Counted from the stretch's first letter, positions 18,053-49,074 are shown. The stretch: 53,993 bases of DNA from Candidatus Uhrbacteria bacterium (GCA_016188355.1 JACPHY010000008.1:1-53993); one strand, 5' to 3'. Translations and numbers: made by a program. Notes: a model not told the origin generated them from the letters alone.

Positions 18053-18079
18053 TTCGCTTATTCGTACGAATATGAGATT
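18053..18079 (+). repeat. Dispersed palindromic site, copy 1
   Basis: TTCGCTTATTCGTACGAATATGAGATT. Confidence 0.9.
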
Positions 18080-18124
18080 TGTCTCAACACCAGTAATCTC
18101 ATCTACTCATGCAAACACGCAAAG

Positions 18125-18697
18125 CTACCCCTTCCGCTCTTCCGCAATTTCTGAGAGAAGCACATTCTCCACGATGATGCCGCGCGGCAAGAAAATACGA
18201 ACCAATTCATCGCGAATATCTAGCTCGACTGCATCGCGCCGAGCGGAGGCGAAGTCTGAAAATTCGTACTTTGATGCAATCATCCGAAATCGGCTCTGAA
18301 TCGTTGGACGGATGATCTTCTCCACGAAATCCTCGCCCACCGACTGCCAAATAGTGGGAATCTGCTGCTGGTCGAGCCGAAGGAGAATGGTTCCCTCGAT
18401 ACCCACTTCCGTTTCGTCGGCCGTGACCGCATGGATCGGCTGATCGCCCATGGCGGACGGGTGATCAAGAGAAAACTTTTTCGAGATTGTGTACTCGAGG
18501 GTTTGGGTATTGAAGAGCTTCGCACGTTGCCAGAACGGAATTTTAAAATGCAGACCCGGAGTAAGCACCTTCTTCAGGACACCGCGACCGAGGTCATAGA
18601 CGCATGCAACGTACCCTGGTGGAACGTTAATGAAAAACCCCTTCAGTACATCCTCCACCACGAACGTATACATCAGCTTATCGATCGCGTCAGCCAT
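18125..18697 (-). CDS. SPFH/band-7/prohibitin-domain protein (short)
   Basis: VPPGYVAC...LTPGLHFKIPF, IIRP, GIIVENVLLSEI. Confidence 0.85.
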   Translation of the reverse strand: MADAIDKLMYTFVVEDVLKGFFINVPPGYVACVYDLGRGVLKKVLTPGLHFKIPFWQRAKLFNTQTLEYTISKKFSLDHPSAMGDQPIHAVTADETEVGIEGTILLRLDQQQIPTIWQSVGEDFVEKIIRPTIQSRFRMIASKYEFSDFASARRDAVELDIRDELVRIFLPRGIIVENVLLSEIAEERKG

Positions 18698-18721
18698 ATT
18701 CGATGGAACAAAAACGTTGGT

Positions 18722-19402
18722 CTATTTTGCAAACGCGCGCCGCGCACCGAAGAGCAGTCCGGAGAACGCCATCGAGGTCATCACGAAAAGCGACTTCACC
18801 ATTGGCAGTTGTGCGAGAATAACGGTAACGGCCAACGGGAAGATGTATCGATACGCAACCTCACGAGCCACAACCCGATGTCGCTCACCACGCTGCATAA
18901 AGAGAATCTCCACAAAGAGTCCCACCCCCACAGCAATGCTCCATCCGAGATGCCGCTTTGCGATATTGAATCCAGCGAACATCGTATTCACGAAATCAGG
19001 ACGTCGCACACTCGCGTACAAATCCACTAATTTTTCGGACTGCAACCCACCAATGAAGACCTGGTAGATGAGGACGAACACGAGCACTTGTACTCCAAGT
19101 ACCACAAACTTCGCCCACGGACTCACACGATGTCGCTTGAGCAGCTTCCTGGTTTCTGCTCGTTTTCGGACGGGATCGTTCTTGAAGTGGCGATCGACAT
19201 CCGTAATTTGAGAGGAGAGCGCCTCCAGCGCCCCTCGTTTTCGCTCGGAGAGAACGCTGAAGGGTAACAGCGCAATGCGCATGAGTACCGTCAGCTCTAT
19301 GATTGCCACGCCCAGGTTTTCTCCTGCGGTCCGATCGTAGAGAATGAACAGGACGTTGAGGAGCGGCTGGTACAGGTACTCGTGCCAAAAAGTGGCTAGC
19401 AT
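18722..19402 (-). CDS. yidC: YidC/Oxa1-family insertase, minimal form
   Basis: LYQPLLN...GVAIIELTVLMRIALLP, coiled-coil hairpin, HRVSP, Q-containing TM segment. Confidence 0.75.
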   Translation of the reverse strand: MLATFWHEYLYQPLLNVLFILYDRTAGENLGVAIIELTVLMRIALLPFSVLSERKRGALEALSSQITDVDRHFKNDPVRKRAETRKLLKRHRVSPWAKFVVLGVQVLVFVLIYQVFIGGLQSEKLVDLYASVRRPDFVNTMFAGFNIAKRHLGWSIAVGVGLFVEILFMQRGERHRVVAREVAYRYIFPLAVTVILAQLPMVKSLFVMTSMAFSGLLFGARRAFAK

Positions 19403-19564
19403 AGCGCGTTGCGCGCGAACTATTCCTTAGCGTACGCCCCTCACGCCCGGTATGCAACAAAACGGGGCATCAAAGAGCTCCTAACGTACTCCACCAGACA
19501 GAATCTGTCGATGCCCGCAACGCGAACAGCCTCGATGCGACGACGAGGCTGTTCGCTCCATGAG

Positions 19565-21706
19565 CTACTCTTTTGGTGGGCTACCCGCCGCGTCACCGGT
19601 GTCCTCCGCTTCTTCCTCTGGAGCACTGGACGCCCCGTGCTGGGCTGCATCTGCCTGGGCGGCACGTAGCACTTCTCCGAGCGATATTTCTTTATCTCCG
19701 GGTGCACGCTCCACGGACTGTAGGCGGTCCATAGATGGGACAGGAGACGCTCCCCGCCTCGGCGGCGCACCGCCCCCGCGAGGATTCGTTGTTCCCGGCG
19801 TTCCATGCCGCGCTCCCCCCATTCCGCGGCGGTCGCCATCGCGCACCGGCCGCTGCGACGACGGCGACCCGGTTGCTCGACGATTCGGATCGCCCGCTGC
19901 CGGTCCTCTCTGCTGTCCCTCCCCCATCGATCGTCGATCGACCTTCGGTTTTTCGTAGACGGCAATCTTGGCACGCTCCTTCTCCGCGCGCATGCAATTT
20001 TCACACAAAATACGTTGTCCGGGTCGGGGACGGAAGTAGACGGTCGCCATAGTGCCGCATTTCGCGCACTCCGCTTGGCGAGGCTCTGGCGGTGGTCGAT
20101 CCGGTCGCTGCGCATCACGAATCGTGCGCTGTACATCTGGGGTCTGGTCTTCCGCACGAACGCCCGTCGTCATCGCGCCGTGCATAGACTCCCGGAGCCA
20201 TCCCCCACCGCTCGCCGCTGCCGCTGGGCGATCATCGCGCCGCGCACCACCACTCCGTGGCGGCATTGGTTGCCGTTCCGATCGCGGTGGCGGACCCGAC
20301 ATGCCATCCGTCAAATTCCGTGCGGCGGTACGCGCCTGCTGCCAGTCCCCCTCCGGAAGCTCAGGCGCTGCATCATCCCCTTCTTCCGCACCCAGCATCC
20401 CCGTCCACCGTGCGATCTTGTTCTCGATCTCCTCCCGGGGTCGCGCGTACCGCTCTCGAGAAACCCGCTCCACTTTTTCCGTGCTCCCCATGCGCTGATG
20501 GAGCACCGTAATGGGTGGAAGCGTATGGGCAGAAAATGGATCCGACGCAACTCCGTTGATCATGAGCTTCAGATACACTTCCCACTTGGGCAGATTCACC
20601 AGATCCTCCTGTGTGAAGATCGGCATGAATTCTGGTTCGAGGAACTCCGCATCCGTTGCGCCGACTCGGAAGGTTACAATCGTTCCGACGTTTCCGTAGA
20701 CCGCATCGCGCACACGCGTTGAGGTGTCCGTCATGAGCTGTCCGATATACTGGTGCGCAATAATCAAATTCAGGCGATACTTGCGCGCTTCGGACAGAAT
20801 ATCCGCAAACGAATCGGTCGCAAAATTTTGGAACTCATCGACGTACAGATAGAAGTCCTTTCGCTCCTCCTCCGGCACCCGTACTCGCGCCATTGCCCCC
20901 AAGTAGAGCTTCGTCACCATCATGGCACCGAGCAACGCGGAGTTGTCTTCACCAACGCCACCCTTCGCGAGATTCATGATGAGAATCTTCTCCCCATCCA
21001 TGATCTGTTGAATATCGATCGTCGACTTCACCTGCCCCACAATATTCCGCACGAGCGGCGAGGAGAGAAACTGTCCCACCTTATTTTGAATGGGCGCGAT
21101 TGCTTCCGTCTGAAATTTGTCGGGATACCGCGCGTATTCGTCGACCCAGAATGCCTTCACCACCGGATCCTGTACCTTGGCGATCACCTTTCGCCGATAC
21201 TCCTTGTCCACGAGAATACGCATGATGCCAAGCAGCGTGGTTCCCGGATAGTCCATGAGCGCCAGGATGGCGTTTCGGAGCACGTATTCCAGCCGAGGGC
21301 CCCACGAATCTGCCCAGATCTTCTTGAAGATGCCAATAAGGCCCGATGCCACGAGGTGCTGCTGATCTCGATCCACATGCTCCAGCACGTTGAAGGCGAC
21401 CGGCCACGAGAGGTCGGCGGGGTTAAAATAGATAACATCGTTCACGCGGTAGCTCGGGATGAAATCGAGAATTTTTTGCGCGGTATCGCCGTGCGGATCG
21501 AGATACGCCACTCCATGTCCCATCTTAATGTCATGGAGAATGAGCTGTTCGAGCATGGAAGTTTTCCCCATGCCCGTTTTCCCAATCAAATACATATGCC
21601 GACGACGGTCGTCGGTCTTGATACCGAACTGCTGCGTTTTGCCGCGGAAGTTCGTCTGCGCGAATGGGTTGACTTCGTTTTCGTGATCGTGCGGTATTCC
21701 TGCCAT
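19565..21706 (-). CDS. VirB4/VirD4(TrwB)/HerA-like ATPase with a C-terminal CxxC-x17-CxxC domain
   Basis: RHMYLIGKTGMGKT, DPHGD, LYVDEFQNF, EARKY, AHQY; CAKC-x17-CENC. Confidence 0.85.
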   Translation of the reverse strand: MAGIPHDHENEVNPFAQTNFRGKTQQFGIKTDDRRRHMYLIGKTGMGKTSMLEQLILHDIKMGHGVAYLDPHGDTAQKILDFIPSYRVNDVIYFNPADLSWPVAFNVLEHVDRDQQHLVASGLIGIFKKIWADSWGPRLEYVLRNAILALMDYPGTTLLGIMRILVDKEYRRKVIAKVQDPVVKAFWVDEYARYPDKFQTEAIAPIQNKVGQFLSSPLVRNIVGQVKSTIDIQQIMDGEKILIMNLAKGGVGEDNSALLGAMMVTKLYLGAMARVRVPEEERKDFYLYVDEFQNFATDSFADILSEARKYRLNLIIAHQYIGQLMTDTSTRVRDAVYGNVGTIVTFRVGATDAEFLEPEFMPIFTQEDLVNLPKWEVYLKLMINGVASDPFSAHTLPPITVLHQRMGSTEKVERVSRERYARPREEIENKIARWTGMLGAEEGDDAAPELPEGDWQQARTAARNLTDGMSGPPPRSERQPMPPRSGGARRDDRPAAAASGGGWLRESMHGAMTTGVRAEDQTPDVQRTIRDAQRPDRPPPEPRQAECAKCGTMATVYFRPRPGQRILCENCMRAEKERAKIAVYEKPKVDRRSMGEGQQRGPAAGDPNRRATGSPSSQRPVRDGDRRGMGGARHGTPGTTNPRGGGAPPRRGASPVPSMDRLQSVERAPGDKEISLGEVLRAAQADAAQHGASSAPEEEAEDTGDAAGSPPKE

Positions 21707-21715
21707 ACAACAACA

Positions 21716-23107
21716 TCAAGACACTACCGGCAATTGTGGAGGCGGTCCGCCGGATTTCTGATCGGGTATCGGCAAGCTCGAGGGAGCGGATGACGAGGTG
21801 GTGGGCAACGAAGAAGGGGCCTGCGCCCGTCGTGCATCCGTACGCATGATGAGCGGCGCATGCACCGCCTGCGTGGGGAAATGCCAGAGCGAAGCCAGTT
21901 CCTCCGTATTCAGCACATACGCCGGCATACCCACATGCATACTCCGCTTCTGGTATGCACGGACTAGCTTTGTTTTCCGCCAGCTATTGCGGCGATCCTT
22001 GAACAGCCAAAGCGAGCTCGGGCCAACGGACTTGAACTCCGGCTTCAGCGCATTCGCATCATTGGTATTGTACTGCTTGATCGCACCCACAATCGCCTGC
22101 GCACCATGCGCCTTTTTGAATGCTTCCTTTCGCGCCGCGTAGATGACACGGATTTTCGTTTGGAATCCAATTTTCGATGCCTTTTTTTCCACCAGCTCCA
22201 CTACGGCACGCTCTCCGGGAGACATGAACAAAACCTTACTGAGCGGCTCATCTTTCTTTTTCTCGGTGGTAGCTCCGAATTCCACACCCGCCACCTCGTT
22301 CAGGATGGGATTCGCGATCGCACCGACGGTTCCCATGACGGAATCGAGTGCAGATTTCTGTTCTGGCACCTTCGCCCCGATCAACTTTTTTACGAGGAGC
22401 ACTGCCTTCTTCTGCCACGATTGATCAATCGGTTTAATGAGAATCTGAATCCAAATCTGCTCGCCGGGACCAATGCGCGCCAAGTTTTCCAGCATCGCCG
22501 CGAGCGGATCCTTAAATGGCTCATCTTTAATTCCCTTGTGCTCGAACTGTTCCCAGGTACGGATGGGATACCCCTGGTCCTTCACGAGAATCAACTCGGT
22601 CCCCCAGGCGTCCCATTCGGTGTCAGGGTATTGCTTTGGAATTGCCTTCGCGTAATCCTCTACCTCGGTAATTTGCGCATCGGGATATTGCGCATAGATC
22701 GCGGTTTCCACAAGATCGCGGTACTTATCCCAGGTCCACACCAAAAACTGCACGTACCCATCAATGGATACCATCTCGAGACTAAACCACTCCTGCAGGT
22801 TCCCATGGAAATACTTTTCCCGACGGTTATGGGATCCATGCGCACCGGCGAGATGCGCAAAGATATTCTCCACCGCCTTAGGTGTTTGGAGGGAGAGTTT
22901 TGGTACGTCGATGGCGAGGAGGACCGGCCGCAGTTTCTCTGCGAGGAAGTTATTTTGGATGTGGTTCATCCAAAGTGCTTTGCCCATCCACCAGAGAAAG
23001 TACACGAAGATCACCCACGCTCCGCGCGTGAGGAGAAATTCCGCGGCGGACAATGGATCACCCGCCACGCTGAGAATAGGATCCAGATCAATGACAATCG
23101 ACGGCAT
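21716..23107 (-). CDS. Membrane-anchored hypothetical partner of the ATPase
   Basis: N-terminal TM; FSLEMV, IYAQYPD, LNTEELASLWHFP motifs; 9 bp from the ATPase gene. Confidence 0.75.
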   Translation of the reverse strand: MPSIVIDLDPILSVAGDPLSAAEFLLTRGAWVIFVYFLWWMGKALWMNHIQNNFLAEKLRPVLLAIDVPKLSLQTPKAVENIFAHLAGAHGSHNRREKYFHGNLQEWFSLEMVSIDGYVQFLVWTWDKYRDLVETAIYAQYPDAQITEVEDYAKAIPKQYPDTEWDAWGTELILVKDQGYPIRTWEQFEHKGIKDEPFKDPLAAMLENLARIGPGEQIWIQILIKPIDQSWQKKAVLLVKKLIGAKVPEQKSALDSVMGTVGAIANPILNEVAGVEFGATTEKKKDEPLSKVLFMSPGERAVVELVEKKASKIGFQTKIRVIYAARKEAFKKAHGAQAIVGAIKQYNTNDANALKPEFKSVGPSSLWLFKDRRNSWRKTKLVRAYQKRSMHVGMPAYVLNTEELASLWHFPTQAVHAPLIMRTDARRAQAPSSLPTTSSSAPSSLPIPDQKSGGPPPQLPVVS

Positions 23108-23186
23108 ACGAGGCGTCGAGTCCCGGACAAATGTTCCACAGGCACTTCTCTAGTGTACACCAGCGCACCTTGCATCGCCTATAAAC

Positions 23187-23218
23187 AAGATACCGAGCAG
23201 CTAGCTGCTCGGTATCTT
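23187..23218 (-). terminator. 32-bp perfect palindrome after secF
   Basis: AAGATACCGAGCAGCT/AGCTGCTCGGTATCTT. Confidence 0.6.
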
Positions 23219-23253
23219 TGCGGCGCCCCATCCGCGCGGTCCTCACCAGCCCC

Positions 23254-24147
23254 TCAACGGACATTCGGCCGCGATCCGCGTTGCTGCCATGTCACCAGCA
23301 ATGGAGCCGCGATGAAGATAGACGAATACGCACCCACGCCGATCCCGATCGCCAGTGCGAGCGCAAAATAACGTACCCCCGCACTCCCGAACATAATCAC
23401 TGCAAGCAGCGCAAGAATCGTCGTGATGGTGGTGTACATGGACCGTGCGAATGACTGATGCACGCTCCGCTCCACTACGGTCGCAAAGTCTCCCCCTCGA
23501 GCATTGCCGACATTCTCACGGATGCGATCCAGCACGATAATCGTATCGCTAATCGAATACCCCAAAATCGTCAGCACCGCCGCGATGAACGGTGCGCCGA
23601 TCTCCACGCCGACGAAGCGGCCGAGCACCGCAAATACGCCCGTCGGGATGATTACGTCATGCACCATGACCACGAGCGCGACGAATCCGTACGCCCATGA
23701 GGAGACCTGCACGCCTGCCTTCCGGAACATCCATGCGACGTAACAGAGAATGAGCAGCAGGGCCAGCACCACTCCAATTGCTGTTTTCCGGGCAAGCTCC
23801 TGACCGATCGATGGCCCGATCGTCTCGAAACGCAGCTCCGATGCACGATCCTGGAGCGCGCGTACGATCGTCGCGTGGAGCTCTGGCGTGAGTGTTTCGG
23901 TACGAACAATCACCGCACGATCCCCTGCCGACTGCAGTTGAATACGATGCGCCCCGAGTGCAGCTATTTCCTGCGTGAGCACTGCAGGGGCTGGGGGCGC
24001 GCCCGTAAATTGAAACTCCATGAGGGACCCGCCCACAAAATCAATACCGAAATTCAACTTCCAGAACGCGATGGCAAGCACGCCCGCAATCACCAACGTC
24101 CCGGAGATGGTGTACCAGATTTTTCGATGTGCAACGACGGATAGCAT
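23254..24147 (-). CDS. secF: Protein translocase subunit SecF
   Basis: GIDFVGGS, IGPSIGQEL, GYSISDTIIVLDRIRE, GAYSSIFIA. Confidence 0.96.
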   Translation of the reverse strand: MLSVVAHRKIWYTISGTLVIAGVLAIAFWKLNFGIDFVGGSLMEFQFTGAPPAPAVLTQEIAALGAHRIQLQSAGDRAVIVRTETLTPELHATIVRALQDRASELRFETIGPSIGQELARKTAIGVVLALLLILCYVAWMFRKAGVQVSSWAYGFVALVVMVHDVIIPTGVFAVLGRFVGVEIGAPFIAAVLTILGYSISDTIIVLDRIRENVGNARGGDFATVVERSVHQSFARSMYTTITTILALLAVIMFGSAGVRYFALALAIGIGVGAYSSIFIAAPLLVTWQQRGSRPNVR

Positions 24148-24174
24148 AGAGATCGCCGTGAGCCGCGGAGGAGA

Positions 24175-26016
24175 TTAACGGGAACGATCGGACGCATGCG
24201 CAGTCGCCGCAGCGGCCGGTATGGGCCGCACGCCGTACCACCCCATACCCTGTGCCCATCCCGCGACCAGCAGGAGGAGCGTACGAGTCACCGAAATCGC
24301 GGTAAACATGCTCACCAGCACGCCGATCCCCAGCGTTACCGCGAACCCCTTCACCACGCTAGAGGAAAACGTGATCAAAATGAGACAGGTAATCAGGGCG
24401 GACACATTTGAATCTCGGATGGATGTCCAGGCACGAAGGAATCCCTGTTCCAGGGCATCGAGGAGGGAGCGCCCATTCCGCAATTCCTCTCGGAACCGCT
24501 CAAAGATGAGCACGTTCGCGTCCACCGCCACCCCAATCGACATGACGAACCCCGCAATGCCCGCGAGCGTCAACGTTGCCCCCAGGAGCTTCATCACTGC
24601 CAATACCAGCGCGACGTACCCTACCAGGGCGATATCGGCAACGAGACCAGCCAGCCGATATCGGAACAGCATGAAGAATGCGACCAACACGTATCCCAAG
24701 AGCGCCGCACGGAGACTTGCCGCAACCGCAGTTTCTCCTAACGTGGCACCAATGGTGGTCTGTGCAAGCAGATGCACCGGAACCGGTAGCGCGCCCGCCT
24801 GGAGCCGTCGCGCGATCATCTTCGCGCGGTCCACCGTGAGATCCGTTCCCGTTACCCGCGCCTCACCCCCAGTAATCGCCCCCTGCACCACCGGTGCGTA
24901 CAAATCAGCATCCGTGATCACGCCGTCCCCGTCCGTATCGACTGGGGACTTGCCATCCAGAAAAATCGCAATTGGCTTCCCGAGGTTCCGTTCGGTGATT
25001 GCCGCAAACAGCGCCTTACCTTCGTCATTGAATTGGAGGCCAATCTCGGCCGCATTCGTCGTCGGATCAAACTGCAGGAACGCGCGCTTCAGCTGCTTGC
25101 CGCCCAATCCGGTGTATTTCCACGGATCCTGCGGGCCAAGCACGTCCTGTTCCGTCTGCTTCCGAATGAGAATATGCGATGCCCGAACCTCGCGCAGCGA
25201 CGCTCCGTCCGGTGTCGTTACTGTTGCATTGACTGGTGCTCCACTCTCCGTCACCGCATTCAGGGACACCTCACCCACTGCGCGCTCCTCTTCCTTGCGG
25301 ATGATGTGCCATCCGAATGGGGACTCCACCAATCGAGGAATGACGCCGATGGTTTTCGCGCCAAACACCGCATCGTTGAACTCCTGCACCATGATCCCCG
25401 GTCGGAACCAACCCAAATCACCACCCTGCTCCTTGGATCCAGGGTCGTCCGACCATTCGCGAGCGAGCGCAGCGAAGTCTGCTTTGGGTTTTTGCGCGCG
25501 CGCGAATATTTCTTCTGCGCGCTTCTTTGCTTCGCGGTTCCGTCGATCGAGATCCTTGCGTTGCTCTGCGGTCAACGTACGAATTTCCGTATTCTGCTCC
25601 TTGAACTCGAGCACGGGCGTCGTGCCAATTGCCGCGATTGCTTCCTGCGTATCGTAAACCCCCGCCAGCTCGACAATAAGCCGCCAGGTTCCCTCGACAC
25701 GCGTCAACTGCACCACGGGCTCCGCGACGCCGAGCGCGTTGATGCGACGCTCGATGACATCGCGCACGCCTTCCATCGAAACACGTTGGTCGCCATCCGG
25801 AATGGCGGACACGTCCGCCTGGTAGACGAGGTGCGTCCCTCCTTTGAGGTCGAGCCCGAGTCGGAAGGGACGTTCCGGAATCGCAGCCCAGGCCATCGGT
25901 CCGCGCGCGATCCGATTCCACCATTGCGGCGCATCATACATCGTCGCAGCGAACAGGAGCACGAAAAGAAGCACCGCACCCATCCACAAGCGTCGTCGAG
26001 GTCGAGGTACAGCCAT
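24175..26016 (-). CDS. secD: Protein translocase subunit SecD with an inserted parvulin-type PPIase
   Basis: LGLDLKGG, RINALGVAEP, GALPVP, GVAVDANVLIFERFREE; PPIase motifs GGDLGWF, SPFGWHII, VRASHILI. Confidence 0.95.
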   Translation of the reverse strand: MAVPRPRRRLWMGAVLLFVLLFAATMYDAPQWWNRIARGPMAWAAIPERPFRLGLDLKGGTHLVYQADVSAIPDGDQRVSMEGVRDVIERRINALGVAEPVVQLTRVEGTWRLIVELAGVYDTQEAIAAIGTTPVLEFKEQNTEIRTLTAEQRKDLDRRNREAKKRAEEIFARAQKPKADFAALAREWSDDPGSKEQGGDLGWFRPGIMVQEFNDAVFGAKTIGVIPRLVESPFGWHIIRKEEERAVGEVSLNAVTESGAPVNATVTTPDGASLREVRASHILIRKQTEQDVLGPQDPWKYTGLGGKQLKRAFLQFDPTTNAAEIGLQFNDEGKALFAAITERNLGKPIAIFLDGKSPVDTDGDGVITDADLYAPVVQGAITGGEARVTGTDLTVDRAKMIARRLQAGALPVPVHLLAQTTIGATLGETAVAASLRAALLGYVLVAFFMLFRYRLAGLVADIALVGYVALVLAVMKLLGATLTLAGIAGFVMSIGVAVDANVLIFERFREELRNGRSLLDALEQGFLRAWTSIRDSNVSALITCLILITFSSSVVKGFAVTLGIGVLVSMFTAISVTRTLLLLVAGWAQGMGWYGVRPIPAAAATAHASDRSR

Positions 26017-27642: not shown

Positions 27643-27984
27643 CTAATACAATCGCCCCCCATTCGGCACCGCATGGGTCGGTGCAATCAACACCGCATTG
27701 CCGTCCCCGTCCGCAACTCCGAGGGTCAGCACCTCGGAACGGAATGGACCGATTTGCTTCGATGGCATATTCACCACCGCCATCACCTGCTTCCCAATGA
27801 TCTCCTCCTTCCGATATCGCCTCGTCAGCTGCGCCGATGAGCGCTTTCGTCCAATTGCTGTCCCAAAATCAATGACGAGCACATACGCCGGTTTCCGTGC
27901 CTCCGGAAAATCCTCCACGTCCACTACCGTTCCCACGCGAATATCAACCTTTAAAAAATCATCGAATGTAGCCATCTGCTGCAT
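27643..27984 (-). CDS. csaA: CsaA/Trbp111 tRNA-binding export chaperone
   Basis: DFLKVDIRVG, FPEARKPAY, SSAQLT, KQIGPFRSEVLTLG. Confidence 0.9.
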   Translation of the reverse strand: MQQMATFDDFLKVDIRVGTVVDVEDFPEARKPAYVLVIDFGTAIGRKRSSAQLTRRYRKEEIIGKQVMAVVNMPSKQIGPFRSEVLTLGVADGDGNAVLIAPTHAVPNGGRLY

Positions 27985-28018: not shown

Positions 28019-28045
28019 TTCGTTTATTCGTACGAATATGAGATT
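28019..28045 (+). repeat. Dispersed palindromic site, copy 2
   Basis: TTCGTTTATTCGTACGAATATGAGATT (26/27 identical to copy 1). Confidence 0.9.
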
Positions 28046-33884: not shown

Positions 33885-34700
33885 TTACGAATGCAGGAAG
33901 AGTGTTTCCGCAAGCCCCGAAAACACCCAAGGACGCTCCGCTGGGGCGAACACCTGCTCGACCAGCGCGACGTACGGATCAAACTCATGGAGACCGGTAT
34001 GCATGCCCGCGTAATCCGTGCCAAACATCATTTTCTGCCGCACATCGGGGAAATAGGCAAACGCCCGATCGAGATCTCGTGCGTACTGTTGCACGAGCGG
34101 ACGAATCCGATCTGCTCCTCCCACGGAATCGATGGTTCCTGAACAATCGGTATAGACGTTTGCATTCTTGCTCACCACATTCGCCGTCTCGAGCAGGTAC
34201 GGAAATCCAAAATGCGCGATCACCATGGGACATGCAGGTACGCGCATGGCGAGGACATCCACATGGATCGGATGGCTGTAGAGCAGCATCGCCTGCTGTT
34301 CGATATCGTATACATCCCCGCAGTGAAAAATGAGCGGTTTACGGAATTCCGCACACAACTGCGCAAGCGGCACGAGTCGCTCATCGGACGGGTACACGTG
34401 CTGATATCCGGGATAACACTTCACTCCGACAACGGCGCGGTCGGCAAAAAGTACGTGGAGTCGCTCCAACTGCGGCTCCGCCGCTGCGTTCATATCAAAT
34501 GCGGGGATCAGGCGCATGTCCGGATGCGACCGCACGAATGCGTGCACACGATCGAAATCCACGGGGAGCACCTGATCCGCAGCATCATGCGTGGACCAAT
34601 GGTAGATGGTAAAAATCATCCGAACGCGATCCCCCGCCTGCGCTCGATACTGTGCATACGTCGCCTCTTCATAGAGGTGCGTGTGGATGTCAATGATCAT
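33885..34700 (-). CDS. Amidohydrolase family (TIM-barrel metallohydrolase)
   Basis: IDIHTH, GVKCYPGY, IFHCG, IAHFG, FGTDY. Confidence 0.88.
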   Translation of the reverse strand: MIIDIHTHLYEEATYAQYRAQAGDRVRMIFTIYHWSTHDAADQVLPVDFDRVHAFVRSHPDMRLIPAFDMNAAAEPQLERLHVLFADRAVVGVKCYPGYQHVYPSDERLVPLAQLCAEFRKPLIFHCGDVYDIEQQAMLLYSHPIHVDVLAMRVPACPMVIAHFGFPYLLETANVVSKNANVYTDCSGTIDSVGGADRIRPLVQQYARDLDRAFAYFPDVRQKMMFGTDYAGMHTGLHEFDPYVALVEQVFAPAERPWVFSGLAETLFLHS

Positions 34701-34728
34701 ATGGAGCATTTTTCCTGTAGCTTTTCCT

Positions 34729-34755
34729 TTCGCTTATTCGTACGAATATGAGATT
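34729..34755 (+). repeat. Dispersed palindromic site, copy 3
   Basis: TTCGCTTATTCGTACGAATATGAGATT (identical to copy 1). Confidence 0.9.
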
Positions 34756-34764: not shown

Positions 34765-34826
34765 CAAGCTGCAAGCTCAAGCTGCAAGCTCAAGCTGCAA
34801 GCTCAAGCTGCAAGCTCAAGCTGCAA
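34765..34826. repeat. Tandem repeat (CAAGCTGCAAGCT) x4 plus a 10-bp partial unit
   Basis: Perfect 13-mer units start at 34765, 34778, 34791, 34804; partial unit at 34817. Confidence 0.95.
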
Positions 34827-34936: not shown

Positions 34937-34954
34937 CGGGCATCCAGGACACTG

Positions 34955-35027
34955 TCGGGCCGGCCGGGCTTGAACCGGCGACCTCACGGTCCCGAACCGT
35001 GCGTTCTACCAACTGAACTACGGCCCG
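34955..35027 (-). tRNA. tRNA-Pro(CGG)
   Basis: Cloverleaf CGGGCCG/CGGCCCG; anticodon loop TTCGGGA; T-loop TTCAAGC; no encoded CCA. Confidence 0.96.
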
Positions 35028-41391: not shown

Positions 41392-41418
41392 ACCGTACCC
41401 ATCGAAGACGGGTACGGT
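41392..41418 (-). terminator. Intrinsic terminator
   Basis: Minus strand ACCGTACCCGTC-TTC-GATGGGTACGGT then a T run. Confidence 0.7.
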
Positions 41419-41445
41419 GAGCATCCGCGGGTCATGAACGTGAAA

Positions 41446-41955: not shown

Positions 41956-42004
41956 TACTCCATCCTCCGTGGCGACCAACCGGTACCATTCGCTGGTCAG
42001 GCGC

Positions 42005-42033
42005 ACCGTATCCGAACATGACCACTCTGTCAA
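42005..42033 (-). promoter_or_regulatory. Sigma70-like promoter
   Basis: TTGACA-17 nt-TACGGT on the minus strand. Confidence 0.55.
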
Positions 42034-42076
42034 TCACCCCACCGCCACATGGCGAACCGCATCATTCTGCATCCTC

Positions 42077-42148
42077 AGCCGATGGTGGGATTTGAACCCA
42101 CGACCCATCGCTTACGAAGCGATTGCTCTACCACTGAGCTACATCGGC
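42077..42148 (-). tRNA. tRNA-Thr(CGT)
   Basis: GCCGATG/CATCGGC acceptor stem; anticodon loop TTCGTAA; T-loop TTCAAAT. Confidence 0.96.
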
Positions 42149-42164
42149 TCAAGACGAACAATGA

Positions 42165-43127
42165 TCACCCACGCACCAGCAAATACCCCACATACCCCAC
42201 ATAGCAGCCAAGGAGCAGCGCGCCCTGCCAGCGTTCGAGCGTGTGGCGCTTCCCGACGAACATCGTAGCGAACAACGCCGCACTCGCAAATACCGTCACA
42301 AGGATATCGAAATTCTGCCCCGCCGCAAACGGCAGCGGATGGAGGAGCGCACTTACTCCAAGAATGAAGAAAATATTAAAGATGTTTGATCCCACCACAT
42401 TCCCCACCGCAATATCCATGCTCCCCCGCCGCGCCGCAAGCACCGAGGTGGCAAGTTCCGGAAGAGAGGTGCCTACCGCCACGATAGTCAACCCGATGAG
42501 CGACTCGCTCACCCCAAGCATCCGCGCTCCTGCCACGGCACCCAGTACCACCCAGCGCCCACCCCAAATCAATGCCCCAAGCCCGGCCACCACCGCCACC
42601 ACCGCTCGTCCCATGCTCCACGGGTGCGCAGTTTCCGGCGCTGCCGCCCCCGTCTCCTGGCGAGCGATACTCAACACATACGCCAAAAAGATACTGAAGA
42701 ATCCCAGAAAAAGCAATCCGTCGGTCCGGCTCACCACCGCCACCACCGCACCGTCTATGATGCCATCGTTCGCGGCAATACCGACCGCGACCGCGGCGAG
42801 CAGACTCAAGGGGATTTCTTTCCAGGTGGTCCCCCGATGCACCCGCAATGGGATGAGTATTGCGGCAATACCGAGAATCGCAAAAATGTTGAATGTATTG
42901 CTCCCCAGAACATTCCCAATGGCGAGATCCGTTCGTCCTTCCGCACTGGCGAACAGATTCACCACCAATTCCGGCAGTGACGTTCCAAAGGCAACCAAGG
43001 TCAATCCAATTACCAACTCCGAAATACGAAACCGCCGCGCCAACGCCGCCGATCCCTGAACAAAAAAATCAGCCCCTTTGATGAGGAGGAGAAACCCAAC
43101 AACAAACAGAATCAACGTCAGAGCCAC
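42165..43127 (-). CDS. Ca2+/Na+ antiporter (YrbG/CaCA family)
   Basis: Two alpha repeats GTSLPE...GN(V)xGSNxFNI. Confidence 0.93.
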   Translation of the reverse strand: MALTLILFVVGFLLLIKGADFFVQGSAALARRFRISELVIGLTLVAFGTSLPELVVNLFASAEGRTDLAIGNVLGSNTFNIFAILGIAAILIPLRVHRGTTWKEIPLSLLAAVAVGIAANDGIIDGAVVAVVSRTDGLLFLGFFSIFLAYVLSIARQETGAAAPETAHPWSMGRAVVAVVAGLGALIWGGRWVVLGAVAGARMLGVSESLIGLTIVAVGTSLPELATSVLAARRGSMDIAVGNVVGSNIFNIFFILGVSALLHPLPFAAGQNFDILVTVFASAALFATMFVGKRHTLERWQGALLLGCYVGYVGYLLVRG

Positions 43128-43188
43128 AAATTCGATCGGTAATTTGATCTTTCAAACAAGCGGATCCTCGATTGGTCTCTTATGCCAT

Positions 43189-43259
43189 TGCGGGATACGA
43201 GAATCGAACTCGTGTCTCCTGCTTGGGAAGCAGACGTACTACCATTGTACGAATCCCGC
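43189..43259 (-). tRNA. tRNA-Gly(CCC)
   Basis: GCGGGAT/ATCCCGC acceptor stem; anticodon loop TTCCCAA; T-loop TTCGATT. Confidence 0.95.
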
Positions 43260-43341
43260 GTTTGCACTTTCCATGATGGGGAGCGTACCGCAAACAGACG
43301 CACTTCTGCAAGCGCATCATGGATCCGATCTCCTCACCTCC

Positions 43342-43722
43342 TCACCGAAAAATATGATGCCACCATTTCTCGACATTGGACTCCGGGACAGAAACTCCTG
43401 GGGATGCGGTATTGGACGCCGGCGTGTTGGGCGTATCAGGAATGATGAGCACGGTCTCTCCCGGACGCTGCAGCCCCATACGAAGCCTCGCCTCGCGCTC
43501 AATGAATTCCGGATGTGCACTCTGCTCGAGGAGATCAGAGAGACGATTCCGTTGCTGCTCCAGGCGGGCCACCTCCTGCTCAATCGTGCGAATTTCCCGC
43601 CGCACGCTGTTCCGGCGTTCCATTTCCTGCACAATTCCAGCCACCACGCCCGCAAGTGCGAGCGAACTCACTGCGAACACCAACGTTGTTCGCCAAGCAG
43701 AGCGAGGCCGTCGTTCCTTCAT
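43342..43722 (-). CDS. Septum formation initiator (FtsB/DivIC family)
   Basis: TM plus coiled coil plus FIEREARLRMGLQRPGE. Confidence 0.88.
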   Translation of the reverse strand: MKERRPRSAWRTTLVFAVSSLALAGVVAGIVQEMERRNSVRREIRTIEQEVARLEQQRNRLSDLLEQSAHPEFIEREARLRMGLQRPGETVLIIPDTPNTPASNTASPGVSVPESNVEKWWHHIFR

Positions 43723-44966
43723 ATCTCCGATGGCGCGTTGCGCACCCGAAGGAGCTCCCGGAGCACGACGCGATCATCCCACGGCAACTTCTGCCCCCGG
43801 GGACCCACGATCGCCTGTTCACAGCCCTTCCCCGTCACGAGCACTCGATCTCCCGGCTGTGCCTCCGACAGGACCACATGAAATGCGTCCCGTCGGTCGG
43901 CAATAATACGCACGCGCTCGGTGGGTAGTATAGCGCTCGGATGCGCCGTACACCACGCACGCGCACCCGCAGCAACCTCCTCCATGATGACCCCGGGATC
44001 ATCATCGTATGGATCTTCATTCGTCACCACCACCACATCCGCATGCGCCGCAGCGCGCTCCCCCATTGCGGGCCGCTTCCATCGATCACGACCACCCCCC
44101 ACCCCCCCAAGCACATGAAAGGTCCGTCCCGGAATCTCGGGCAACGCTCGATAGACCGCGTCGATGGCATGGGGAGTGTGCGCATAGTCCACGAGCACGG
44201 TGAACGCTTGGCCCAAGTCGATCGATTCCAAACGTCCCGGCAATCCGGTTACGGTCCGCAACGCACCATACACATCGACGCGGGAAAAACCGAGCACCTC
44301 CCCCACCGCCACCACCGCCGCAGCGTTTTCGGGAAATGCACGCAATACCGGCGCAAGTACCATATCGGACACTTCTCCCGCGGAGAACGTGCGCACCACA
44401 CGGAATGGATATGCAGTGTACTCCTCCGGATGTTCCAGCTCCCGCGGAACCACCGCAATGCGCTGCTTGGTCATCGTGCGCGCCGTCTGCGCAAAGAGAC
44501 GCGCCTTTGCCGCACGATAGCGCGCAAATCCCCCATGGGACTCAATGTGCTCGGACGCGAGATTCAGGAGCACCGCCACGTCGTATGCTATCGCCGAGCT
44601 CCGATACTGCACGATGCCTTCCGACGACGTCTCCACGATGGCATGCGTGCATCCCGCATCCACCATGTGTCGCAACATCCGCTGCAGCGCGAAACGTCCC
44701 GGCATGGTCATTTTGGACACATTCAACTGCTCTCCGTCGCCCAGCGAAAGCGTCGCCGTGGACGTCCAACCCACGCGTACCCCCATCTGCCGGAGCACGT
44801 GTCCCAGTGCCATGACGACGGAGGATTTCCCGTGCGTTCCCGTCACGCCAATCACAACCAGACGGCGACTCGGGAAGCGGTACCACCACGCTGCGGCAAA
44901 TGCCAGCGCATAATGATACGCGCGCAGGAGTGGCTTCGGAATACAGGTGCGGAGGAGATGGATCAT
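43719..44966 (-). CDS. murE: Mur ligase, MurE-like
   Basis: GVTGTHGKSS, ETSSEG, PGRLE, DYAHTP, NEDPY, GKGCE. Confidence 0.85.
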   Translation of the reverse strand: MIHLLRTCIPKPLLRAYHYALAFAAAWWYRFPSRRLVVIGVTGTHGKSSVVMALGHVLRQMGVRVGWTSTATLSLGDGEQLNVSKMTMPGRFALQRMLRHMVDAGCTHAIVETSSEGIVQYRSSAIAYDVAVLLNLASEHIESHGGFARYRAAKARLFAQTARTMTKQRIAVVPRELEHPEEYTAYPFRVVRTFSAGEVSDMVLAPVLRAFPENAAAVVAVGEVLGFSRVDVYGALRTVTGLPGRLESIDLGQAFTVLVDYAHTPHAIDAVYRALPEIPGRTFHVLGGVGGGRDRWKRPAMGERAAAHADVVVVTNEDPYDDDPGVIMEEVAAGARAWCTAHPSAILPTERVRIIADRRDAFHVVLSEAQPGDRVLVTGKGCEQAIVGPRGQKLPWDDRVVLRELLRVRNAPSEI

Positions 44967-46480
44967 GACGGGATGGATGATCGCTGTGCGCGCACCGCGC
45001 GGATAAACTGGTCGCCGCGATCAAACTCGTGGAGAAAACACCCAAAGGAGGCGGCGCCCGGCGAAAGCAGCACCAGGTCGCCTGGCTGCACAACCCGGCG
45101 TACCTGTGCGAATGCCGCGCGCATCGTTCGCACCACAACCACCCGATGCGTGCGCAAAAACTCGGGATACCGCGCAAGTTCCGTCTGCATCAAATCCGTC
45201 GCCGTCCCCGCGAAGAGCACCAGCATCGCCACATGCCGCACCGCTGCTTCGGCCCACCGATCAAACGTCAACCCCTTGTTCGTGCCGCCGCCTAGGAGAA
45301 TGATGCGTCCAGACGGGGTTTGATGGCGCAATTCCTCTACCGCCGCCAACGCACTGATGGTGCCGTCCGGAGAGGTCGCGCAAGTGTCGTTGATGTACGT
45401 AACGCCGCGAATGACCGCGATGCGCTCCAGGCGACCCGGAAGACCAGTGAATTGGGCGAGTGCACGGTCCACGGCACTAGTGGAGCATCCCATGGCACGC
45501 GCCGTTGCAGCGGCAATCGCAATGTTCATGGTGTTATGCACACCGAGCAGCGGGGATCGGCTGCGATGCGCGATGACGGCTGCGCCGGTACCGTGCGTAC
45601 GAATCTGATTCCCCGTGATCGTCACCCCAGACCAACGCGTACGCGGCGGCTTCATCGCCACCGGAATCACGCGCCCCGGAGCATACTCCGCGAGCACCCG
45701 CGTGATCGATTGATCCACGTTCACCACCGCGGTACTTTCGGGGGACTGAAAACGGAACAGACGTGCCTTTGCCAATGCGTACGATCGCATGGAGGGATAG
45801 CGATTGAGGTGATCGGGGTAGAGATTCGTGAGCACGGCAATATCCGGACCTCCGGTCGCGCGAGAGAGGTGCTCACAATGCCAGCTCGAAAGCTCCAGCA
45901 CGACCGTCACCGGCCCTTTCCGCATGGCGCGTTCCGTACGATCCAGTACCGCGAACATTGGGATGCGAATATTGCCGGCGAGCACCGTCGTACGCCCTGC
46001 TGCTGCCGACATCGCCGCAATGAGCGCTGCGGTCGTCGATTTTCCTCGCGTACCCGTCACCGCCACAATCGTATGCGCGTACTGCACCGACCCCGGTCGC
46101 ACGCTCATTGCCCGCACGCGCGCAAGAAAGAGCGATGCCTCATTCGCAATCGGGATACCCGCGCGCTGCGCGATGGCAAGATACGAAGAATCTCGTGGAA
46201 CGCCTGGATTCTGCACCACGAGATCCGTATTCCGAAAATCGTCGGCCCGGTGCTCTCCGAGTACCAACACCAGCGATCCGCTCCCGCGCTCCCGCGCGGT
46301 GGCCTCCAAGAGCCGCACGGAGGGGAGCAGGACGGCGCGCGACCGCAGATCGGTCACCACGACGGATGCCCCACGGCGAAGCAACCACCGCGCCACCGCG
46401 CAGCCTCCCCCATGGAGCCCCAGCCCCATCACGAGGACCCGCTTCTCCCGAATATCCGACAACCAATCCGCAAGCCGCAT
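44963..46480 (-). CDS. murD: UDP-MurNAc-L-Ala:D-Glu ligase
   Basis: GLGLHGGG, NPGVP, VTGTRGKSTT, LELSSW, DHLNRY, LLSPGAASF; start could also be 46492. Confidence 0.92.
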   Translation of the reverse strand: MRLADWLSDIREKRVLVMGLGLHGGGCAVARWLLRRGASVVVTDLRSRAVLLPSVRLLEATARERGSGSLVLVLGEHRADDFRNTDLVVQNPGVPRDSSYLAIAQRAGIPIANEASLFLARVRAMSVRPGSVQYAHTIVAVTGTRGKSTTAALIAAMSAAAGRTTVLAGNIRIPMFAVLDRTERAMRKGPVTVVLELSSWHCEHLSRATGGPDIAVLTNLYPDHLNRYPSMRSYALAKARLFRFQSPESTAVVNVDQSITRVLAEYAPGRVIPVAMKPPRTRWSGVTITGNQIRTHGTGAAVIAHRSRSPLLGVHNTMNIAIAAATARAMGCSTSAVDRALAQFTGLPGRLERIAVIRGVTYINDTCATSPDGTISALAAVEELRHQTPSGRIILLGGGTNKGLTFDRWAEAAVRHVAMLVLFAGTATDLMQTELARYPEFLRTHRVVVVRTMRAAFAQVRRVVQPGDLVLLSPGAASFGCFLHEFDRGDQFIRAVRAQRSSIPS

Positions 46481-46526
46481 ATGGTGCATCATGCGCACAT
46501 TCCTCGTCGCCATACACCTCGGCACG

Positions 46527-47546
46527 CTACGAGGCAGCGCCTCCGCGGAACACTGCACGTGCCGCATCCCAAAGCGATGCATCCTCCTGGGTGGTCTTCA
46601 GCCAGTACCAATACTCCGATCCCCAGAGATACACCTCAGGGAACCCGATCGCCCGCGCGAAATCGATATTCGCGAGCAGCTGGCCACGGTCCATGGACTT
46701 TCGTTGTTCCTCCAGGGGCAGCGCGAAAAAATCACCGCCCGCAATCCATGGCTCTGCCTGAAGCTCCGCGACGATCATCCGATCGGCGGGCTTTCCCGCC
46801 AACCATGCCTTCCATCGATACCATGCGGGCGGCAGGATGTGGTCATACGAGAGATAGCCGATCCATGGATTCCACACCGTGCGATAGAGCGTATGCCCGA
46901 GCCAATCTCCCGATGCGCCGCTCCGCATCCAAAAAGATAGCTCGCCGGAATCCGTGATGAGCACCGGATGCGCCGCATCGAGTGCGCGTACCTGCGCCAC
47001 TTCCGCGGCGAGCAGCTTCCCATCCCCCGGCGGACATTCCCCGAACACCCCAAGAAAAGGCTCATTTTCGACCTGCCACATTCCCAGGGTCGGGTGAGAC
47101 CGATACCGTTCCACCACGCGCTGCACATACGCCTGCAACGCCGTATGCTGTTCCGGCAGCGGCAATGCGCGTACCCAATCCGGCATGTGACACTCCGGCC
47201 ATCGCGGTAAGCGTTGCCCCACCGCAAGGAGCACCCGCGCATTGCGCGCGTGCGCTTGGTCGAGCATCCAATCAAGATCATCAAACTGGAAGACTCCCTG
47301 CTGCGGCTCGATTTCGTTCCAATAGGCACCCAACCGCAGCCGGCGTACCCCAACATCATCCAAGAGCGCCGTATAGGATGCTCGCCAATCGAGCCGGAGA
47401 TACGTCGCATGCGCTTTCGAGAAATGCACACCCCAAACCGGCGTTCCGCGCGATGGCGGAACCAAAAATAGCGCAAGGTATCCGATCAACATCGCTACCA
47501 CGACGACCGCAAGCGCACCGAGTGCACGCCCCCAGGAGAATGCCAT
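46527..47546 (-). CDS. Membrane-anchored clan GH-A glycoside hydrolase
   Basis: N-terminal TM; YWNEIEP...F-F--LD; WQVENEP acid/base motif; AELQAEPW. Confidence 0.75.
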   Translation of the reverse strand: MAFSWGRALGALAVVVVAMLIGYLALFLVPPSRGTPVWGVHFSKAHATYLRLDWRASYTALLDDVGVRRLRLGAYWNEIEPQQGVFQFDDLDWMLDQAHARNARVLLAVGQRLPRWPECHMPDWVRALPLPEQHTALQAYVQRVVERYRSHPTLGMWQVENEPFLGVFGECPPGDGKLLAAEVAQVRALDAAHPVLITDSGELSFWMRSGASGDWLGHTLYRTVWNPWIGYLSYDHILPPAWYRWKAWLAGKPADRMIVAELQAEPWIAGGDFFALPLEEQRKSMDRGQLLANIDFARAIGFPEVYLWGSEYWYWLKTTQEDASLWDAARAVFRGGAAS

Positions 47547-47655
47547 AGATGCAAGAGTTCACTCTCTACCATACGCGAGCGCGGAGCGATTGACGAGGCC
47601 TGGGTTCCATGCCAGCATGCAATGGTACGAATAGCTATCGCGAAAGGAGATGCAC

Positions 47656-48807
47656 GTGAAATCACCTTCACAATTCATCCATCAATTCCTCGATTCGTGG
47701 CTCTGGTCGCTCCGGATGCCCTCCTGGGGCGGAGACGAACGACTCAACACGGAGCTTCGAGCGAATGGTGATCACATTCCTGTGCTCGGCACCCTGATGC
47801 AAGAAATGTGGTACTCCGACGGCGGATCGCACGACTGGAGCACGAAGCGCCGCGTACAGCTCACCGCCATTCCGTCCCACGGTCCGAACGTCAGCTTCGA
47901 CGGTCTCCTAGACCCCGACGGTATCGGCACGTCCATGGCCGATCTCATTCCTGAACTGCGTGCACGGTGCCGAGCACTCGGCCTCGGGGAATGCGCCGTC
48001 ACCCATGCGGACCGATCCGTGCGCAGCGAGCCGCGCGATGAAGGAGAAATCTACACCGACGCGCAATGGGCAGTGGCATACATTCCCGCTGCGCAATGGG
48101 AGCAGATTCCACTCGCACAGCGACCCACCATTTACGCCGACAGCGTCAAGGGCGATCTCCCGAATAATGTGGAACACGTGTCCCGAATCGTCTTCCCCCA
48201 GGAACGCCATGTACCCATGGATCGTCCTCCGGAGCCGCGCCCCATCGATTTCGACACCGCACGCGTGCTCTTCGAGAGCAGTGACCATGCTGCTCGGCAG
48301 CAGGTATTCCTCACCGGGGACGGCACGCGCCTCATCGACATCATGGCCCCGCACTGGACGGCGCTCTGGTATCGCGTGCACGAGGAAGTGTTTACGCGAC
48401 AGTTTGGATGCGCACCGGAAACGCTCCCCGCGGGCCATATGGCGCATTGCATTGCCGATATCTGCAAAGGCATTTCCACAGAACGGTACAAGATGGACGG
48501 CCGAGCCAAACGGCGGATCATGAATGACGGCCTTGCTGCGCTCTTTGGGTCCTCCTTGTTCCCATCGCAAGAACTCCTCCGCAGCCGGCGTCGATGCCGC
48601 GCGGAATATCAATTCCGCTACGAGGACCTCGACATCCCCGATGTCCAGGAGTACGAACGCCATCTCCTCCCGGAAATTCTCCGCCACCCAAAATTCGCGT
48701 TCACCGAAAAGGATGTGCATCTCCCCGAAGCACACGAACGCGCTCGCCGCCTGCTCCCGGAGATCCTCCTCAATCCCGGGTGCGTCATACTGCGAGACGC
48801 CGAGTAA
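47656..48807 (+). CDS. Hypothetical protein (about 383 aa)
   Basis: Long ORF; SD AAGGAG 47644-47649 fits GTG 47656; terminator follows. Confidence 0.7.
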   Translation: MKSPSQFIHQFLDSWLWSLRMPSWGGDERLNTELRANGDHIPVLGTLMQEMWYSDGGSHDWSTKRRVQLTAIPSHGPNVSFDGLLDPDGIGTSMADLIPELRARCRALGLGECAVTHADRSVRSEPRDEGEIYTDAQWAVAYIPAAQWEQIPLAQRPTIYADSVKGDLPNNVEHVSRIVFPQERHVPMDRPPEPRPIDFDTARVLFESSDHAARQQVFLTGDGTRLIDIMAPHWTALWYRVHEEVFTRQFGCAPETLPAGHMAHCIADICKGISTERYKMDGRAKRRIMNDGLAALFGSSLFPSQELLRSRRRCRAEYQFRYEDLDIPDVQEYERHLLPEILRHPKFAFTEKDVHLPEAHERARRLLPEILLNPGCVILRDAE

Positions 48808-48813
48808 TCAAAG

Positions 48814-48845
48814 CACCCGCGACACATCATGATGTGTTGCGGGTG
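48814..48845 (+). terminator. Intrinsic terminator
   Basis: CACCCGCGACACATCA/TGATGTGTTGCGGGTG followed by TCTTTTT. Confidence 0.7.
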
Positions 48846-48869
48846 TCTTTTTGATGCCGGTGTTTCGTA

Positions 48870-48959
48870 TTCGCTTATTCGTCCCACTCCGCTTGCTCAC
48901 GTCGCTACGCTCTACGGGACAGGCTGAAGCTTCGCGCATGCACACGAATGAGACAATGG
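48870..48959 (+). repeat. Dispersed palindromic site, copy 4, interrupted by a 61-bp insert
   Basis: TTCGCTTATTCGT (48870-48882), insert 48883-48943, ACGAATGAGACAATGG (48944-48959). Confidence 0.75.
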
Positions 48960-49045
48960 CCCAACCCGCCAATCCAGCGCTGCCAGATGGCTGGCCTTCC
49001 CGGGAAACACTGCAACTCCGCAGCATTTGCTGCCCTTGTCTCTTG

Positions 49046-49074
49046 TTCGCTTATTCGTACGAATAAGACAATGG
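49046..49074 (+). repeat. Dispersed palindromic site, copy 5
   Basis: TTCGCTTATTCGTACGAATAAGACAATGG; 18-bp perfect palindrome at 49050-49067. Confidence 0.88.

Follow-up and report, generated by a model that had tools for sequence, protein, structure and literature searches.

A palindromic site family in a Candidatus Uhrbacteria genome, most likely paired with a mini ArsR-type regulator and copied to about 15 co-oriented places

What is a 27-bp, partly palindromic site doing in the same orientation at five intergenic places on one stretch of DNA? The stretch (hereafter the window; 53,993 nucleotides, GCA_016188355.1 JACPHY010000008.1:1-53993) is one contig of a Candidatus Uhrbacteria genome. 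A preliminary description of it, made from the sequence alone, had proposed a recombination target, a REP-like (repetitive extragenic palindromic) element or a polar chromosome-organizing site whose protein is encoded elsewhere. The feature is real and non-random. Judged from sequence comparison, it most likely belongs to a pair common in ultra-small bacteria of the Candidate Phyla Radiation (CPR), a mini ArsR-type regulator (mini-ArsR) and its palindrome, which here would have been copied to about 15 co-oriented places.

Four matches to the 27-mer were found in the window (copies 1 to 4; coordinates in Table 1), all on the plus strand as the 27-mer is written, with zero, one, zero and three mismatches, respectively. 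No match occurred in any of 100 dinucleotide-preserving shuffles of the window. The 14-bp palindrome TATTCGTACGAATA is exact at four places in the window, and at up to three mismatches it gave five matches against a shuffle expectation of 0.98. Copy 5, which is split, is genuine. Its halves are cut exactly at the dyad centre, the 61-nt insert between them is unique in the whole genome, and its right flank is a repeat of the right flank of copy 4.

Intergenic status was assigned from our own codon-usage gene calls together with Pfam and tRNA scans. Every copy in the window is intergenic. Copies 1, 4 and 5 lie between convergent gene ends, and copies 2 and 3 stand upstream of minus-strand genes. 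The five copies, their intergenic placement and the shared orientation of their asymmetric flanks were thus as the preliminary description had given them.

The genome of the window (G000; 1.06 Mb, 60% GC, 925 gene calls) consists of 19 contigs, the window being contig C7. A genome-wide search returned 12 exact occurrences of the 14-mer and two with one mismatch. With membership judged by the flanks, the family comprises 15 sites: four on C7, one on C8, seven on C17 and three on C18. One degenerate copy on C17 falls inside a gene call. Along one strand the consensus reads TCTCA-TATTCGTACGAATA-AGCGAAT. At 15 of 15 sites this consensus strand is the G-rich (leading) strand of the contig, GC skew being positive throughout C17 and C18 and negative on C8 and most of C7. 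The same strand also carries about 80% of the genes; the plus strand holds 79% of those on C17 (130/165) and 80% of those on C18 (125/156).

A gene on the same strand follows 16–115 nt downstream at 10 of the 15 sites, and where the intergenic gap is long the site stands at its downstream end. The genes that follow code for a tRNA-binding protein, an amidohydrolase, an ArsR-type regulator, MetRS, a VF530 protein (followed in turn by TspO), an M23 peptidase, a GT2 glycosyltransferase, GatC and two proteins of unknown kind. The preliminary description had held that a simple promoter operator would not account for all copies, and that copies confined to the promoters of one regulon would speak against its own proposals. 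Four or five of the 15 copies indeed stay unexplained as promoter operators; the 10 promoter-proximal ones come close to the situation named in the second remark. The sites hold 42–43 bits of information over 25 positions, whereas 17.1 bits would be enough to specify 15 sites, and they are therefore taken to be copies by descent from one founder.

The likely protein partner is encoded outside the window, at C17:104562-104882. This gene specifies a mini ArsR/SmtB-type winged-helix protein of about 90–106 amino acids and is the only member of its family in the genome. A site lies 16 nt before its longest open reading frame, and a TATACT −10 box follows the core by 13 nt. The protein scores 63.7 bits against NCBIfam NF033788 (cut-off 55), the test for the ArsR/SmtB family, and 34.2 bits against Pfam HTH_5 (cut-off 22). 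In addition, it matches the PDB structures of Lmo1102, PagR, HlyU, NolR and SmtB. The metal-sensing residues of such proteins (a cysteine pair in helix 3, or a C-terminal site in helix 5) were not found: at the positions of the two Cys of Lmo1102, the best-matched solved chain, stand Thr and Gly, which makes a classic metal sensor unlikely. The chain ends soon after the wing. On its sequence, the mini-ArsR is a bona fide member of the ArsR/SmtB family outside the metal-sensor subgroup. A gene for an ArsR-like protein of 86–106 amino acids stands directly beside a site in three genomes (G000, G025 and G054), and in G054 the single exact core is 10 nt from it. A cognate protein encoded elsewhere had been anticipated; the likely one is indeed on another contig, although it looks like an ArsR-type transcription regulator. 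VF530 and TspO had also been considered as the partner; VF530 was dropped as the binder, because among the genomes searched it is present in G000 only.

A profile built from the three proteins was searched in 401 genomes of the class at E<=1e-8. Homologues of mini-ArsR were found in 105 of the 401, often as several paralogues. The flanks of 22 homologue genes from 16 other genomes were inspected. In 16 of the 22, an ATTCG-NN-CGAAT palindrome stands on both sides of the gene, with the two sites 299–329 bp apart; of the others, two have a one-sided palindrome, two a different palindrome and two a variant or extended form. Both sites of a cassette face the same way, as direct repeats, the second of them overlapping the stop codon. 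Most cassettes have a −10 box, often TGnTATAAT, some 13–16 nt past the core and 6–20 nt ahead of the ATG. The upstream site thus covers the −35/spacer region of the regulator promoter, the usual geometry of self-repression. G000 and the cassettes of other genomes agree in the asymmetry of the site (ATCTC arm, core, GCGAAT arm, then gene), so co-orientation is most simply read as co-orientation with transcription.

Cassettes that differ in palindrome centre also tend to differ in the recognition helix of their protein. At GTAC-centred sites, Ser or Thr precedes the TSKH motif of the helix in 6/6 proteins, while at GCGC-, GCTC- or GTGC-centred sites the residue is Ala in 13/15. Tandem paralogues within one genome (G054, G297) retain their own site types. 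By a hand cross-tabulation of the same 401 genomes at the same threshold, mini-ArsR occurs in 34/51 of those with the CTCNNATTCGNNCGAAT pattern compared with 71/350 of those without it. In three loci (L181, L182 and L189) the mini-ArsR protein ends in Ser-Asn-Ser-Arg-Glu, which is the translated downstream palindrome; there the coding region reads through the site. In locus L187 of genome G246 both palindromes flanking the mini-ArsR gene are interrupted mid-site by about 27–28 nt. This resembles the split copy of the window, and centre-split sites therefore recur.

The full unit is an imperfect palindrome of about 30 bp with four ATTC/GAAT half-sites. Its perfect form, TATTCGCT-TATTCGTACGAATA-AGCGAATA, was seen in G025, which belongs to another family, and, among the matches listed, in some Saccharibacteria loci. 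The same-family genome G003 carries the variant CCATTCTCC-TATTCGCACGAATA-GGAGAATGG, and one outer half-site in G000 has decayed to ATCTCA. The exact core is present in 9/401 genomes of the class and in 0/4 of the same-family genomes. The CTCNNATTCGNNCGAAT pattern, which allows other central dinucleotides, is far commoner (51/401). The matches to the 14-mer that were listed collection-wide are mostly chance matches in unrelated phyla, and they were used only for the arms of CPR loci. Eight of the matches listed (L050, L069, L081, L088, L094, L108, L116 and L125) extend the 14-bp core by GAT/ATC to a 20-bp palindrome, and some also have cgaaaattcgta-type repeats nearby. Seven of these loci are of Rhodobacteraceae type (Roseovarius, Roseicyclus) and one is from a Pseudomonadota metagenome-assembled genome; the 20-bp palindrome is perhaps the site of a different regulator in that family.

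The motif is most likely the dispersed operator set of the mini-ArsR regulator of this genome, an assignment in which we place somewhat better than even confidence. To go by their inverted-repeat layout, the four half-sites would accommodate one or two ArsR-type dimers. From the position of the site, a bound protein would cover the −35/spacer region of its own promoter and shut it off. The other copies would descend from one founder by copying and would not have been built up by point mutation. Most of them would have landed, or been retained, just upstream of genes along the direction of transcription, tying those genes to the same repressor; a regulon, if there is one, would have grown by copy-and-paste. 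Copies 1, 4 and 5 of the window, with no gene downstream, are perhaps inert. Alternatively, and speculatively, they might be orientation-dependent roadblocks to read-through transcription, like the stoperators of phage L5.

Several observations weigh against a role as operators of this one regulator. Apart from the site of the regulator itself, no G000 site was seen by eye to have a −10 box at a fixed distance. A co-oriented downstream gene is missing at four or five of the 15 sites, the one on C8 stands 32 nt before radA in the opposite orientation, and the downstream genes share no obvious theme. Among the 51 motif-bearing genomes, 17 have no mini-ArsR at E<=1e-8; in two of the 17 (G129 and G015) none was found even at E<=0.01, nor in G175 and G186, which also have sites. 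Fragmented assemblies, however, readily lose small repeat-flanked cassettes. The palindrome also brackets other genes, namely those for NUDIX (G048), DUF5680 (G208), CYTH (G010) and PRiA4_ORF3 plus Zeta_toxin (G015). It has been inserted in frame as 16 residues in QueA of G186 and as 20 residues in a DinB-like gene of G175. Two intragenic exact cores (a G186 flavoprotein and PrmC of G274) encode native Ile-Arg-Thr-Asn and were excluded from this insertion count. Moreover, the covariation and co-occurrence counts overstate their support because the genomes are related and not independent. The non-ArsR cargo, the in-frame insertions, the sites without mini-ArsR, the stop-codon overlap and the orphan sites suggest that the palindrome has some mobility of its own.

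Such mobility is central to a competing explanation that we regard as possible but rather unlikely, in which the palindrome would serve mainly as a signal for recombination or hairpin copying, standing on both sides of small accessory genes and leaving solitary copies in its wake. Its commonest cargo, or an accessory factor, would then be the mini-ArsR, and the G000 copies would be mostly neutral scars or landing sites. The unrelated cargo, the directly oriented flanking sites with their stop-codon overlap, the true in-frame insertions and the sites in genomes without detectable mini-ArsR are all consistent with this, as are descent from a founder, the patchy spread of the exact core, and the dyad-centre-split copies in the window and in G246. 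IS200/IS605 elements insert through single-stranded DNA, and the leading-strand orientation of all 15 sites would fit insertion by such a route. Nevertheless, a generic recombination site would not be expected to covary with the recognition helix of the protein it encloses, copy number is low (1–15 per genome), and the G000 sites lie near gene starts and are not random within gaps. No recombinase, transposase or nuclease is linked to the G000 sites, the Y1_Tnp gene and the small GIY-YIG gene of this genome being on other contigs. It is very improbable that the motif is the target of a single-strand nuclease or transposase of the Ssn/SRM or REP/RAYT type (RAYT, REP-associated tyrosine transposase), although it is a short hairpin-capable repeat with oriented flanks and small GIY-YIG genes are abundant in motif-bearing genomes, one abutting a site in G048 (L201) and another being 260 nt away from one in G215 (L030). 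What the repeat flanks with regularity is the gene of a winged-helix regulator. Compared by eye with the degenerate SRM pattern of the published account (PMC11893778), the motif does not match it, nor does it have the GTC-type 5′ tag. The only Y1_Tnp match in G000 (C16:2112-2426) and its small GIY-YIG gene (C11:55273-55491) are both on site-free contigs, contrary to the idea that copies might flank an HUH/RAYT or GIY-YIG gene in this genome. A REP-like element is therefore not borne out by the HUH (Y1) gene of G000, but retains the unrelated cargo and two in-frame insertions of other genomes in its favour. A transcribed hairpin that terminates, processes or stabilizes mRNAs, its orientation following transcription, is improbable. 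Elsewhere the arms vary and stay complementary, with perfect palindromes of up to 38–42 bp among the matches listed (L085, L089, L123), where a non-CPR locus (L082) also resembles a bidirectional terminator; T-runs follow some downstream cassette sites (L178, L180), and sites occur at 3′ ends and between convergent genes. In G000, however, the arms are conserved but not complementary (TCTCA against AGCGA gives 3/5 pairs), which restricts the stem to 5 AU-rich base pairs. T-runs are absent from most sites, Rfam at its gathering thresholds matched only four tRNAs in the window, and the covariation with a helix that binds DNA points to duplex DNA as the form recognized.

By analogy with RTP/Ter or Tus/Ter, a winged-helix protein on asymmetric 30-bp sites could form an orientation-dependent block around the terminus; we judge this, too, quite improbable, by a shade less so than the RNA hairpin. 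The 15 of 15 sites along the G-rich leading strand include the C8 site, which stands among lagging-strand genes. The cumulative GC skew of the window reaches its maximum at about 9–10 kb, and all window sites lie beyond it, at 18–49 kb, on the new leading strand. Sites are found on only 4 of 19 contigs (simulated P ~0.003), the dnaA contig C3 has none, and their density climbs toward one end of the joined C8–C17 scaffold. The regulator gene stands beside one of its sites, as does rtp. On the other hand, 79–80% of the genes on C17 and C18 are on the leading strand, so gene-strand co-orientation explains most of the site-orientation signal (0.79^15 ~0.03). In other genomes, sites follow the orientation of the gene they bracket, many genomes have several paralogues each with private sites, and sites may be found at any chromosomal position, such as 22 kb from dnaA in G038. 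Of the contigs, only C8(−) could be joined to C17(+), their ends overlapping by 141 bp; C17, C7 and C18 were not shown to be neighbours, a synteny comparison of C17 with C7 having been uninformative. For the chromosome-organizing site of the preliminary description, then, the clustering and the terminus-like GC-skew switch in the window are in favour, and the gene-following sites of other genomes are not. At about 2.68 kb, where two convergent gene ends overlap, gene orientation in the window turns from plus to minus; taken with the skew maximum, this suggests a replication terminus or an old inversion boundary within the window (~2,700-10,000). An unlikely but distinct combination is a self-spreading repressor–operator module, the mini-ArsR palindrome being copied strand-specifically, always onto the leading strand and perhaps via single-stranded hairpins, into a polar terminus array of about 15 protein-bound sites. 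If true, such a module could bring new genes under a single repressor and, depending on orientation, also hold up transcription or replication forks. A parS role was not supported. As had been noted from the sequence, the motif differs from textbook parS; the only parS-like match in G000, at C17:21777, has two mismatches, and there is no clustering near the origin, the dnaA contig being without a motif copy. One copy in G025 follows parB.

The dispersed-operator assignment can be set beside known systems. The closest family is that of the autoregulated ArsR/SmtB repressors (SmtB, CzrA and CadC, and the non-metal HlyU, PagR, BigR and SdpR), which share the winged-helix fold family of the mini-ArsR. 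As in those systems, the candidate operator is a long imperfect inverted repeat which, by its position, would overlap the −35/spacer region of the protein's own promoter. Unlike typical members, the protein is minimal (86–106 amino acids), its gene is usually bracketed by two sites with the second overlapping the stop codon, several paralogues with private site types can share a genome, and here there are 15 near-identical dispersed copies. For dispersed co-oriented sites, the closest functional analogy appears to be the stoperator network of mycobacteriophage L5. In this Cluster A phage, the repressor has many near-identical asymmetric operators and stoperators in short intergenic gaps, in one direction relative to transcription. 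Both cases would involve one small repressor and near-identical asymmetric intergenic sites placed one way relative to transcription, also at promoterless places. In contrast to L5, the present sites are palindromic four-half-site units of ~30 bp on a cellular chromosome, and a roadblock role for them is speculative.

Replication termini offer a second likeness. RTP of Bacillus subtilis is a small winged-helix dimer that binds bipartite Ter sites of ~30 bp and whose gene lies beside its own sites; Escherichia coli uses Tus/Ter. A winged-helix protein, ~30-bp sites and a gene by its own site are common to RTP/Ter and the present case, and the dispersed sites would likewise be co-oriented with replication on each arm. 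Unlike RTP/Ter and Tus/Ter, the sites of related genomes follow their gene and are not terminus-centred, and the likeness is one of layout. REPtrons (a RAYT gene with its REPs) and Ssn with its SRM repeats (PMC11893778) also consist of a small gene flanked by its own palindromic repeat, with dispersed solo copies and occasional in-frame insertions inside genes. Here, however, the flanked gene is a DNA-binding regulator in which no catalytic domain was found, and copy number is tens at most. Integron attC cassettes likewise have imperfect palindromes that bound small co-oriented accessory genes, near or over the stop codon. In the present family, by contrast, palindrome and enclosed regulator vary together, and the majority of G000 copies stand alone.

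The features of the window are collected in Table 1. Directly 3′ of the Era-type GTPase gene, an AT-rich perfect hairpin (17997-18040) adjoins copy 1 on its minus-strand downstream side and looks like a bidirectional terminator. An open reading frame that apparently follows copy 3 is spurious, as the gene for tRNA-Pro occupies 34954-35027. No remnants of regulator genes were found near orphan or split copies.

Table 1. Site copies and neighbouring features of the window (for sites, the strand is that of the family consensus)
Feature	Coordinates	Strand	Description
Site copy 1	18053..18079	-	Exact; minus-strand reading TCTCATATTCGTACGAATAAGCGAA; between the 3′ ends of the Era-type and SPFH genes
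Era-type GTPase gene	17121-17981	+	Converges on copy 1
SPFH/Band 7 gene	18125-18697	-	Converges on copy 1
Site copy 2	28019..28045	-	One mismatch; divergent intergenic region, tRNA-binding-domain gene following after 34 nt
Gene downstream of copy 2	27643..27984	-	113 amino acids, tRNA_bind domain (PF01588)
Site copy 3	34729..34755	-	Exact; amidohydrolase gene follows after 19 nt, tRNA-Pro precedes by ~200 nt
Gene downstream of copy 3	33885..34709	-	Amidohydro_2 family (PF04909)
Tandem array beside copy 3	34765..34826		Period 13, 4.8 copies, GCAAGCT-type
Site copy 4	49046..49072	-	Three mismatches; core exact, distal arm variant; between convergent gene ends
Split copy 5	48870..48959	-	Half-sites 48870-48882 and 48944-48959, insert 48883-48943
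Gene of unknown kind flanking copies 4 and 5	47650-48807	+	Converges with the EamA gene
EamA transporter gene flanking copies 4 and 5	49205-50104	-	Assigned by Pfam

Three sites have a tandem array of GCTGCAA/TCGCTTG-type heptamers no more than 150 nt away: the array beside copy 3 in the window and those at C8:32011-32082 and C17:143122-143164 of G000. Only two other arrays of this type were found in the genome, both on C11, and the association with sites looks non-random. The only small GIY-YIG gene of G000 is flanked by mutually reverse-complementary tandem repeat arrays of 23–26 nt (C11:54821-55778). The layout of that locus is Ssn/SRM-like and is unrelated to the present motif. In G215 (35% GC), loci L030 and L031 have a common extended right flank with a DnaA-box-like tatccaca octamer; the copy of L030 is the one near the small GIY-YIG gene, and the other heads an operon ending in TspO.

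Certain neighbours recur. A site precedes TspO in 3/3 TspO-bearing genomes (five genomes searched). MsbA-like ABC exporters, QueA, DUF167, M23 peptidases and the ATP synthase epsilon subunit are families found near sites in several genomes. These recurrences were not counted as conservation of a regulon, several coincidences being expected in genomes of ~1,000 genes. Apart from the regulator, the MsbA-like exporter is the commonest of them. Its gene is followed by a site within 40–320 nt in G000 (C17:102378-104201), in G025 (L014) and in another population (metagenome contigs L198 and L200), and in G186 sites lie upstream of MsbA-like exporter genes.

Literature searches found no published description of a palindrome-bracketed ArsR system in CPR bacteria or of such a regulon. 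What is new here is the polar array of 15 copies, together with the covariation of helix and palindrome centre and the cargo other than ArsR genes. CPR bacteria (Patescibacteria) have few regulators and their gene control is scarcely known, and this case provides a concrete, testable protein–site pair. The pair comes with a built-in specificity code, in which Ser or Thr corresponds to GTAC at the palindrome centre and Ala to GCGC. In practice, the palindrome is found around accessory genes and at times within genes, and it is a probable cause of assembly breaks. If the polar, terminus-side layout is functional, it would point to a new barrier system. Near-identical 30-bp sites copied round a 1-Mb genome would be a rare visible case of regulon growth by copy-and-paste.

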